In this document: positions 602 through 12,853 of the stretch, in pieces | Layout: each line of letters starts with the position of its first letter | How positions within the stretch are numbered: position 1 is the stretch's first letter | Source of the DNA: Promethearchaeota archaeon | GTDB lineage: Archaea > Asgardarchaeota > Odinarchaeia > Odinarchaeales > JBHLKK01 | Direction of reading: 5' to 3' | NCBI GenBank assembly: GCA_048939465.1 | Contig: JBHLPL010000049.1 | Coordinates: forward strand, 1-13,478 | DNA length: 13,478 nucleotides | Notes under the pieces: generated by a model | What the model was told of the DNA's origin: nothing | The model's database searches: none | Seen by the model: the letters and a program-made list of their open reading frames with translations, nothing else | Translations under genes and position numbers: made by a program

Positions 602-1008
602 GGGTGATAGAACTCTTTTCACCCACCATTCCATGAGACTGCTGGCGCCATTCGTAACATTTTCAGGTGGCATCGTAGAATGAGTAGGTGTGAGCACTCA
701 GGCCTACCTTGGTTCATTTGAACCACATCAAGGAGACTCCGTCCGAAGGGGCGGAGAGGAATTGAGCGATCCTTGAGTACTCGTGACAAACAAGCCAATA
801 AGTCCGAAGGTACACCTCTCTTCGATGTGGAAACGGTTAATGACCTCCGAGGAAGGACGGGTAAACCCTATAGATTGACGCTATACACAAGTCACCGGGC
901 TGGGACGCTGTAACCCCCCTGATTTGACGTGCGATGAAGCCAAAGCCTGAAAGGGAATTGCGGTTATGCACAGTCATAAGCTCCTTCTGCAAGGAAGGAG
1001 TGGTTTAC
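602..1008 (+). ncRNA. Putative large structured RNA (omega/reRNA-like) without an associated ORF
   Basis: Dense hairpins: GGGTGA 602-607/TCACCC 619-624; GTAGGT 684-689/GCCTAC 702-707; TGGTTC 710-715/GAACCA 720-725; TCAAGGA 728-734/TCCTTGA 770-776 enclosing CTCCGTCC-GAAG-GGGCGGAG 737-756; GGG-TAAA-CCC 859-868; TATAG 869-873/CTATA 881-885; GACGTGC 926-932/GCACAGTC 968-975 enclosing CCT-GAAA-GGG; CTCCTTCT-GCAA-GGAAGGAG 981-1000. GNRA loops and G-U pairs favour the + strand. The ORF track shows no ORF here. The 5' boundary is uncertain. Confidence 0.6.
977..1008 (+). mobile_element. IS200/IS605-type right end (subterminal hairpin plus TTAC)
   Basis: TAAG-CTCCTTCTGCAAGGAAGGAG-TGGTTTAC follows the AAGC-[hairpin]-TAGTTCAC pattern I recognise from IS605/TnpB right ends. 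Its reverse complement resembles the GTCAACTACCCC...GGGGCTT start of HEARO/IscB elements. No tnpA, tnpB or iscB is nearby. Confidence 0.6.
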
Positions 1009-10307: not shown

Positions 10308-11870
10308 CTACTTGCCCTCCTTCAAAGATTTGGATGAGTCTTTTCTTCTGGTGGAGCTTCCCGACTGGCTTTTGCTGATAATTAGCAGTCTTTTGATATT
10401 AGGGACTTCTCGTTTACCTGCAAGAAAAGAAATGTTCTCTGCCATTACTGGCAGGTATCGGCCATAAATGTCGAGACGCAGCTTCTCTCTGGCGACTCGT
10501 TCTTTTCTGTGAAGGTGTCTCATTAATCTTCTTGCACACGCTTGAATACCTTTGCGTATTTCCCCCTCAATTTCGACTCTGTCGGCTATGAATTCTTTTC
10601 CAGCAGTCTTGAAAGGTATCTTTGTGCTAACGATGTGTACAAACACAGCTATCGGCATTCCGGGCCTTATTTTGTACCGAGTCCAGTTCACTGCTTTAAT
10701 CACCTTTGCAGAGACATCCTTATACTCATCGTAGATCAGAGGAATACGATTTGCGAACCTGTACAGGACAATATTCTGCTTAAGCGGGACCCCCCCTCCG
10801 TATGCTAACCCGACCTCCGTTATAAATGGATGTCCACCGTAAGATGACGGAGGTCGTTGAGCCACTGCTACGAACTCTGGATCGAGTTCCTTGCGTATAC
10901 CTGCTTCGAGCATCTCTTCTCCCAAGGGGGATAAGCAATCAGCTGCAGGGGGGAGGAATCCTTGATAGCTTCGCATGTTGTGTACAAGTCTCACAACTTC
11001 TCCCATTGTAAGGGATTTCGGGTCTTTATTCGGCTGTATTTTGACTGACTTCAGGAATTTCTTTGCTATTCCTTTTCCTACTCTGTGGAAGTGCGTTGCA
11101 AGAAACTTGCCAATATTCCTCGTCTTTGTCTCTTCTATTAATCGCCTCACATGCTCTATATCGATTCCATGAGGATGTGGTTTTACCAACTTTGAAGGGG
11201 GGGGCAAAGCGTCGACTTTCCTGTGGAAGGTAGACAGGACTCCTTTTGGATCTATGAAGGTGATGTTTGCATAGGGTGTAATGAGTGCGGTCTCCCGAAC
11301 ATACTCGGTTACATTTAATTTCGAGCGCATCCAGTCGCCTTCAAGACTAAACTCGACAATAGTTCCATTCCAACCATTATCATTCTTTCGTCTGTCCCAA
11401 CTCAATAATTCCGGAACATTTCTTTGAATATCCATACGGAGCTTCACATCATAGATATAGCTATCATCATTCGTAGAAGTTATCACGTGAAGAGGGTTGT
11501 GCGTTGTGATCTGGCCGTAGAGATAGGCCATTTTCCCACCCAAGCCGAATCTACCTCGAGCTTGCTTATGCTTGTATTTCGAGCCGTAGAGGATTTGACC
11601 GAAGCACTGCTGTATATAATCTCTCGGAACTCCGCCTCCATTGTCCTCTACCCTTAGTTGATAGACACCGTCGCTTTCTCCCGTCAGCCTTATCAGAAGG
11701 TCAGGAAGGATATTGCTTTCTTCACAGGCATCCAAGGAGTTTTCGACTAACTCACGAACAGCGGTGTATAAGGCTCGTGCTGGATTGTCAAAACCGGCTA
11801 TGTCCCTGTTCCGATAGAAGAAATCGGCGGGACTAATGGCCTCATATATGGTAGAATTGTCTGTTGCCAT
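10308..11870 (-). CDS. top6B: DNA topoisomerase VI subunit B
   Basis: ISPADFFYRN, ELVENSLDA, VEDNGGG, RGRFGLGGK (GHKL), KPHPHG, RFANRIPL and PFKTAGKE. Start placed at ATG 11870 because GAAGGAG lies about 9 nt upstream. Confidence 0.98.
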   Translation of the reverse strand: MATDNSTIYEAISPADFFYRNRDIAGFDNPARALYTAVRELVENSLDACEESNILPDLLIRLTGESDGVYQLRVEDNGGGVPRDYIQQCFGQILYGSKYKHKQARGRFGLGGKMAYLYGQITTHNPLHVITSTNDDSYIYDVKLRMDIQRNVPELLSWDRRKNDNGWNGTIVEFSLEGDWMRSKLNVTEYVRETALITPYANITFIDPKGVLSTFHRKVDALPPPSKLVKPHPHGIDIEHVRRLIEETKTRNIGKFLATHFHRVGKGIAKKFLKSVKIQPNKDPKSLTMGEVVRLVHNMRSYQGFLPPAADCLSPLGEEMLEAGIRKELDPEFVAVAQRPPSSYGGHPFITEVGLAYGGGVPLKQNIVLYRFANRIPLIYDEYKDVSAKVIKAVNWTRYKIRPGMPIAVFVHIVSTKIPFKTAGKEFIADRVEIEGEIRKGIQACARRLMRHLHRKERVAREKLRLDIYGRYLPVMAENISFLAGKREVPNIKRLLIISKSQSGSSTRRKDSSKSLKEGK

Positions 11871-11909
11871 CTTTTGGTACTCCTTCAATCTCTAATTTCC
11901 AGTAGACCA

Positions 11910-11917: not shown

Positions 11918-11983
11918 CTATACTAATAATCAACGGGTCACAAGACTTTTCCGCCACGAATGTGGAGAAGTGTAAACAGAGGG

Positions 11984-12130
11984 GGGCAGTGAACTGGCCC
12001 TAGCCCTCGCAAGGGGCCATCCCTCGCTCTCTGGATCGCCAGCACGTCTCCTCTCAGAGGAGTGAATACTGGGAAGTTTTGGGCAGGTTTAAATCCTTTG
12101 CTGGTGCCTTAGGGCGAGGCAGTCATGCCC
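11984..12130 (+). ncRNA. Putative ~150-nt structured RNA of unknown family
   Basis: Closing stem GGGCA 11984-11988/TGCCC 12126-12130, TGAACTG/CAGTCA and GCCCTA 11997-12002/TAGGGC 12110-12115. Internal arms: CCTC-GCAA-GGGG, ATCC/GGAT, CGCCAGCA 12037-12044/TGCTGGTG 12099-12106 and CTCCTC-TCA-GAGGAG. It is GC-rich relative to its flanks. The G-U pairs and GNRA loop favour the + strand. Confidence 0.55.
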
Positions 12131-12307
12131 GTCAGGATATATGCGAAGGGCCTGTTTCTTCTGTATTCCTTTTCTTCACTCCAAGGCAACAAACCTCAAG
12201 TTTGGGTTTTCGTGAGAGTATTTAAGTTCACCGCAGTCCATCTCCGCTCTATCGGGCAGAGTCTTCTTGTGGAGGGCAGAGAGAGTTTTCGTGTGTGGAT
12301 CAGCCCT

Positions 12308-12559
12308 TTATTTCAGCGGGTAATCCGCAGGTTCACGCCCCTCTTCCACAAAGATTGCTTTTGCTCCAACCAGCCTGAGCTGAGTCTTGAGTTTTGTGGC
12401 AAACGCAGAGGCCTTATATCTTGAATGAGGCGTAGACCTTATACCTTTCCATATCCAAAGCTTCTTGTTGTTTTCATCAACAATGACTGCAGCAGAATCA
12501 CTTGTAGGCTTCTCGTGAATCTGTTCAATCTTGCCATTAAGTACTTTATAGACACGCAT
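12308..12559 (-). CDS. Single-domain gelsolin-like protein
   Basis: MRVYKVLNGKIEQI...SDSAAVIVDENNKKLWIWKGIRST...ASAFATKL...FVEEGREPADY has the gelsolin repeat pattern (lyvW.G...ks...a...A...v.EG.Ep..F). TTTAATTA about 25 nt upstream suggests a leaderless start at 12559; ATG 12583 is the alternative. Confidence 0.8.
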   Translation of the reverse strand: MRVYKVLNGKIEQIHEKPTSDSAAVIVDENNKKLWIWKGIRSTPHSRYKASAFATKLKTQLRLVGAKAIFVEEGREPADYPLK

Positions 12560-12853
12560 ACTCGCTACCACTAACGTCACCATTAATTAAAGTGAAGAAA
12601 TAATCTCTTAAGTCTTTCGGGTCTGTATGAGGATATCGCAACAGAACATCGTTCGCATCGTGAGAATCCCCATTGGAACTGGATGAACTATGGGATGATT
12701 TAATCTCCGATGAGTAAATCTTGATATCTCCTAGCTTCTGTTTTCGAATTCAGTATTCCAATAACACATCAAAAAGCTTTAGTATTACGGTAATAATATA
12801 ATGGTAATACCTCGAGGAGAGAAGGAAGTACTTTTTTTAGGAAGGCGGGGATA

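Follow-up and report, generated by a model that had tools for sequence, protein, structure and literature searches.

A putative structured RNA between top6B and a gelsolin-like gene of an Asgard archaeon as part of a gene-less IS200/IS605 element

The stretch of DNA analysed here (the window, 13,478 nt) is contig C96 of G000, a 1.96-Mb archaeal assembly that is 91% complete. A segment of ~150 nt (positions 11984-12130) occupies the gap between two minus-strand genes. The downstream neighbour is top6B, which encodes DNA topoisomerase VI subunit B (10308..11888; Pfam PF09239, E 1e-57). The upstream neighbour is an open reading frame with a single gelsolin-like domain (12308..12583). It has no match in Pfam, and its nearest ESM Atlas clusters are gelsolin-repeat proteins (score 0.93), which is a lead only. 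A 99-aa open reading frame on the plus strand (12125-12424) overlaps the gelsolin-like gene and the element described below, gives no Pfam match and is taken as spurious. A scan for sigma-70 promoters and terminators performed at chance level, and the method is unsuited to archaea. At the far end of the window, an open reading frame at 1-468 on the minus strand has an E2F/DP-family winged-helix domain (PF02319, E 2e-8, above the cut-off) followed by a probable coiled coil. The congener G001 has two top6B-like genes (L088, L089) that are 86% and 55% identical to the top6B of the window.

An earlier note described the segment as a multi-branch RNA with paired ends, and offered three explanations: a new small RNA class, a tRNA mimic or a small non-autonomous mobile element. 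Two of the motifs it named are found as described, the CTCCTC/GAGGAG hairpin at about 12049-12063 and a pyrimidine/U-rich tract at about 12152-12180. The note saw no motifs of tRNA or of several other known RNAs; Rfam at E<=5 on the window yields nothing relevant, and ARAGORN yields nothing. The segment is, however, not an independent RNA gene. It is almost certainly the right-hand part of a gene-less IS200/IS605 element on the minus strand, of the type termed palindrome-associated transposable elements (PATEs) in Haloquadratum walsbyi (PMC3119063).

A search of G000 for copies, which the earlier note had proposed, brings out a multi-copy family with sharp ends. Two parts of the top6B/gelsolin gap are repeated, one starting sharply at 11989 and the other at ~12217-12275. 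Both co-occur on many contigs, ~215-430 nt apart and in identical orientation. Iterated profile searches of the assembly give 35 matches to the right end and 91 to the left-end-type hairpin, the latter number including short single-hairpin forms. TTCAC terminates 23 of the 35 right ends, and sequence similarity stops there; TTTAT or TTCAT is present near 57 of the 91 left ends, compared with 5.7% of random 22-mers. PATE copies are dispersed and their flanks are unrelated. At the phylum level, the family model has matches in 17 of 101 genomes, and it also matches one Bathyarchaeia contig. Minimal elements of ~45-50 nt, in which a hairpin lies directly 5′ of the right-end motif, are seen in G000 as well (C73:16336, C105:1002, C23:2041, C68:5966 and others). 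Relative to the nearest upstream open reading frame in G000, as determined by a crude call of these frames, left-end matches are in the opposite orientation in 46 cases and in line in 24.

Filled and empty alleles define the insertion. The orthologous gap of G002 carries the same PATE at the same position. The gap of G001 is empty with the same gene order, and here TTTAT directly abuts the sequence found after TTCAC in the filled alleles, without any duplication. This TTTAT-flank junction without a duplication is the signature of IS200/IS605 insertion. Comparison of the alleles fixes the PATE at 12279..11989 on the minus strand (291 nt), and the multi-copy alignment gives the same unit; both the boundaries and the strand of the unit proposed earlier are therefore incorrect. 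By the same comparison, 11984-11988, the five bases with which the proposed terminal stem begins, belong to the host flank. Read on the minus strand, the segment corresponds to the rightmost 172 nt of the PATE, and the gelsolin-like open reading frame has its stop codon 28 nt ahead of the element. That the segment is fixed in all relatives, or that no tnpB-bearing element shares its ends, is in each case contradicted by what was found. The guess of a small non-autonomous mobile element was right, as shown by the copies, by longer parents with the same ends and by the filled and empty sites.

At 291 nt the PATE has no room for a transposase or TnpB gene and contains only remnants of tnpB. It retains the left-end hairpin, a TATA-like box, the first codons and the last ~55 codons of tnpB, the right-end hairpin and TTCAC. 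Subterminal palindromes are present at both ends, and these are not terminal inverted repeats. All parts are on the minus strand. The position of the target-adjacent motif (TAM; 12280..12284) has decayed to TCTCT; it reads TCCAT in G002, and TTTAT at the empty site of G001. The left-end hairpin (12261-12242), delineated by sequence and multi-copy comparison, has a GATA loop. A putative DNA guide, AAGA (12265-12262), lies 5′ of this hairpin, its role being assigned by analogy with IS608 and ISGst2. Among the copies, the first base of the putative guide and TAM position -3 display weak covariation (A/T 16, G/C 10, discordant 10; p=0.017, with copies that are not independent), as the DNA-guide model predicts. 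The TATA-like box TTAAATA (12219..12225), found in 43 of 64 long left-end matches, is the putative promoter of the parental tnpB and is directed through the element to top6B. Decayed first codons of tnpB (12172..12197) align to the probable tnpB start of full-length parents, and include a Shine-Dalgarno-like GAGGT (12197-12193) and a TTG (12184-12182). The approximate deletion junction (12160..12171) follows, where ~1.0-1.1 kb of tnpB is missing relative to the parent (~1.29 kb vs 291 nt). Read on the opposite strand, the purine-rich relic of the tnpB start together with this junction gives the pyrimidine tract mentioned above.

The tnpB 3′ end and the right end (11989..12160) constitute the omegaRNA (reRNA) scaffold, with the segment inside it in antisense. 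The scaffold is 79-81% identical over 97 nt to the parents L090 and L065, and a tblastn trace connects it to TnpB residues 364-411 (E 0.62). Against a covariance model built for the family, the copy in the window scores 117.5 bits and the parent 202 bits, both being members of the training set. The scaffold ends with the right-end hairpin (11996..12017), whose loop is GAGG here and GAAA in the family, and with the end motif TTCAC (11989..11993), which is the same as that of ISGst2. The flank at 11969..11988 would be the omegaRNA guide; its own site is its sole match, and no convincing TAM-adjacent second target was found elsewhere in the assembly. The arrangement is that of an omegaRNA: a scaffold that spans the tnpB 3′ end and the right end, on the tnpB strand, with a variable flank in the guide position.

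Longer elements, with ~1.3 kb between the same two ends, are present in congeners and in a further Asgard family. These parents carry tnpB (L070/L090, L065, L064, L078). The G001 parent has an open frame for a 417-aa TnpB (NCBIfam NF040570, 132.8 bits vs a cut-off of 100); the parental copies of G002, G007 and G018 carry frameshifts or are broken. Aligned with the parent, the PATE of the window matches from the left end past the probable start codons up to the junction at ~12171-12160, beyond which it matches the final ~55 codons together with the right end. The parent TnpB (L070:1513-2766, minus strand, on contig C76 of G001) has a rearranged RuvC-II site, with Gly at the Glu position and a Glu ~50 residues downstream. 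Close relatives of this protein are present in the isolates DZ1B.307 and DZ1B.339 and in Ca. Wukongarchaeum yapensis, and a remnant is found in a Bathyarchaeia contig. This distribution suggests horizontal spread. The G000 assembly, 91% complete, yielded only fragments of the cognate TnpB and no intact one. A single Y1 TnpA gene was found in this assembly, on contig C105; it belongs to a complete tnpA-tnpB IS605 element (L035:1150-2840), and the TnpB of that element also has Gly at RuvC-II. An IS607 origin was considered and rejected: the single resolvase-family match (C114, a 549-aa open frame) is on a contig with no tnpB-family match, and the ends and TAM fit the Y1 type. An IscB/HEARO-type RNA on the plus strand was rejected, since the tnpB of the parent lies on the minus strand. 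In addition, Rfam covariance models at E<=1, including HEARO and sotRNA, have no match in the parents and better-preserved copies.

At the RNA level, the two strands fold differently. The plus-strand fold of the segment (-61.8 kcal/mol, z -1.72) is borderline, with 12 of 200 shuffled sequences folding equally well, and the minus strand does better against its shuffles (z -2.42). The end pairing of about 17 bp can be drawn as 16 bulged base pairs. Its outer 8-10 bp have appreciable probability, but the inner five have ~0.01, five pairs use the flank at 11984-11988, and the stem is not conserved, just 6-10 of the 16 pairs being possible in 23 homologous copies. In a 24-copy alignment, 63.6% of cells are paired in the plus-strand fold and 41% in its outer helix. 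For a 49-pair structure on the minus strand, the proportion of paired cells is 85.6%, and there are 51 double changes, compared with 20 +/- 3.8 in shuffles, none of 500 reaching this value; the structure was built from these same related sequences, so that the figures favour it, and in the parents the scaffold region is additionally under coding constraint. RNAalifold at default settings with all 26 rows gives only 13 pairs, the fuller structure coming from 15 well-preserved rows. The covariation check envisaged in the earlier note supports the minus-strand fold, with these caveats; the plus-strand fold is poorly conserved. GNRA loops fall on the minus strand. Together these data are supportive of a conserved secondary structure of the omegaRNA scaffold, on the minus strand and at the family level.

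About 100 nt from the end of the element there is a GTGAAC, kept in 20 of 26 copies, that is complementary to the terminal GTTCAC. This putative 6-bp pseudoknot has 92.8% of cells paired, without covariation. In the window the corresponding strand (12087..12092, minus strand) reads TTAAAC, and it is this mutation from GTGAAC that gives rise to the T-loop-like sequence on the plus strand. That sequence, GGTTTAAATCC, is present at 12086-12096 as reported, but the family consensus is GGTTCACTTCC, and the T-loop look is peculiar to this copy. On the other strand, these bases are the tnpB codons E-V-N. A plus-strand small RNA of a new kind, or a tRNA mimic, is extremely improbable. Its motifs are present and Rfam is without a match, but the fold and above all its outer stem are poorly conserved and depend on flank bases beyond the element. 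The conserved structure is on the opposite strand from that of the proposed new RNA class, and for the tRNA mimic ARAGORN and Rfam are negative and the T-loop-like sequence is not conserved among copies.

The copy in the window is poorly preserved. It can form 33 of the 49 pairs, is 71% identical to the consensus and ranks 22nd of 26 (tied). At paired positions, 12 of its 16 substitutions break the pair, and two pair-breaking changes lie in the putative pseudoknot strand. Substitutions are somewhat fewer at paired positions (16 of 94) than at unpaired positions (23 of 77), which leaves room for residual selection. Excision by Geobacillus TnpA requires the cognate TAM (10.1101/2023.03.14.532601). 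Since its TAM and right-end loop are mutated and its putative pseudoknot is broken, the copy is most likely an immobilised, decaying relic.

Perhaps, as an alternative with the same origin, the copy is still expressed as a stand-alone omegaRNA that loads TnpB in trans and guards the site against loss of the element. The TATA-like box and most of the scaffold are retained, the orthologous G002 copy has remained in good condition (193 bits), G001 has an empty allele, and stand-alone omegaRNAs that work in trans have been described (PMC10691335). However, given the mutated TAM, an empty site regenerated from this copy would be without TTTAT; the pseudoknot strand carries its two pair-breaking changes, and the cognate TnpB of G000 is found as fragments only. 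A live guide RNA at this locus is therefore unlikely.

Co-option in cis is a further alternative, with the relic serving as a terminator for the gelsolin-like gene, or as a promoter or leader of the top6B-top6A operon. PATE and both neighbours share orientation, the terminal hairpin is still able to form, and the element is 77% identical to its G002 counterpart, compared with 51% identity at fourfold-degenerate sites of top6B. Yet the adjacent intergenic flank is likewise 71% identical, the branch leading to the window copy is long (0.29 substitutions per site, near the ~0.4 estimated from fourfold sites), and G001 maintains the same gene order without the PATE. Such a role appears quite improbable, and an immobilised relic is the preferred reading.

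At fourfold-degenerate sites G001 and G002 are 80% identical, and each is about 51% identical to G000. An insertion common to G000 and G002, with G001 empty, is at odds with these species relationships. In a tree of the family, the filled copies of G000 and G002 form a modestly supported group (0.76), on branches of 0.29 and 0.08. A single old insertion that was precisely excised in G001, two insertions at one TTTAT, and transfer of the filled allele are all possible. The G002 copy (L010, on contig C78 of G002; the empty allele is L088, on contig C84 of G001) is far less diverged than the age of the G000-G002 split would imply. On a more speculative reading, the site has been held or re-colonised by one PATE subfamily in two diverged Asgard species, via TnpB-driven homing of an orphan omegaRNA or via service as a promoter or terminator. 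The proposal is a long shot; if true, Asgard archaea would have domesticated a guide-RNA cassette that belongs to a rearranged-RuvC (Fanzor-like) TnpB.

For the relic itself, the origin is read as follows. As the alignment shows, a solo-tnpB element underwent an internal deletion that took most of tnpB and spared its two ends, along with the promoter region and the 3′ tnpB/omegaRNA scaffold. The short form spread among these archaea and entered the top6B/gelsolin gap directly 3′ of TTTAT, leaving no target duplication, as the empty site shows. Mobilisation was presumably in trans, by a Y1 TnpA and single-stranded peel-and-paste transposition, with the C105 TnpA as a candidate source. By analogy with ISGst2 and ISDra2, the left-end promoter of young copies would direct an omegaRNA guided by the flank after TTCAC, and TnpB supplied in trans would, with such an omegaRNA, cut the empty site.

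The element of the window is a PATE by the published description (PMC3119063). Like those of H. walsbyi, it has near-terminal palindromes, makes no target duplication, has neither a transposase gene nor terminal inverted repeats, and is of IS605-type origin by loss of the core. It differs in its Asgard host, in belonging to a different sequence family and in having kept ~170 nt of omegaRNA scaffold. With ISGst2 and the PATE-like elements of Geobacillus stearothermophilus it shares the TAM TTTAT, the end TTCAC and insertion 3′ of the TAM (10.1101/2023.03.14.532601). The G. stearothermophilus PATE-like elements are likewise gene-less and encode omegaRNAs. Activity has been shown for the Geobacillus elements, whereas the copy in the window has decayed and the RuvC-II of the parent TnpB is rearranged. 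As in the omegaRNA/reRNA of ISDra2 (PMC10097598), the RNA region overlaps the tnpB 3′ end and the right end. The last bases can also pair ~100 nt upstream, here as judged from conservation and complementarity, and this likeness is one of position. The parent protein, as distinct from the copy in the window, resembles rearranged-RuvC TnpB2 proteins such as TvTnpB (PMC10530073) and the Fanzors, with Gly at the RuvC-II Glu and a Glu ~50 residues downstream.

PATEs and stand-alone omegaRNA loci have already been described (Haloquadratum, Geobacillus; PMC10691335), and the discovery value of the present element is little. Its use lies in annotation: such relics mimic novel structured RNAs, Rfam has no model for them, and masking them is advisable when Asgard genomes are searched for RNAs. 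In addition, the family alignment supplies a TAM, an end motif and a scaffold for a predicted Asgard TnpB with a rearranged RuvC site. The window contains a second gene-less element with ends of the same type (718-1008, plus strand), preceded by TTCAT at 713-717 and ending with TTTAC. This element provides the open reading frame at 1005-1586 with its TAA stop codon (1005-1007, minus strand).
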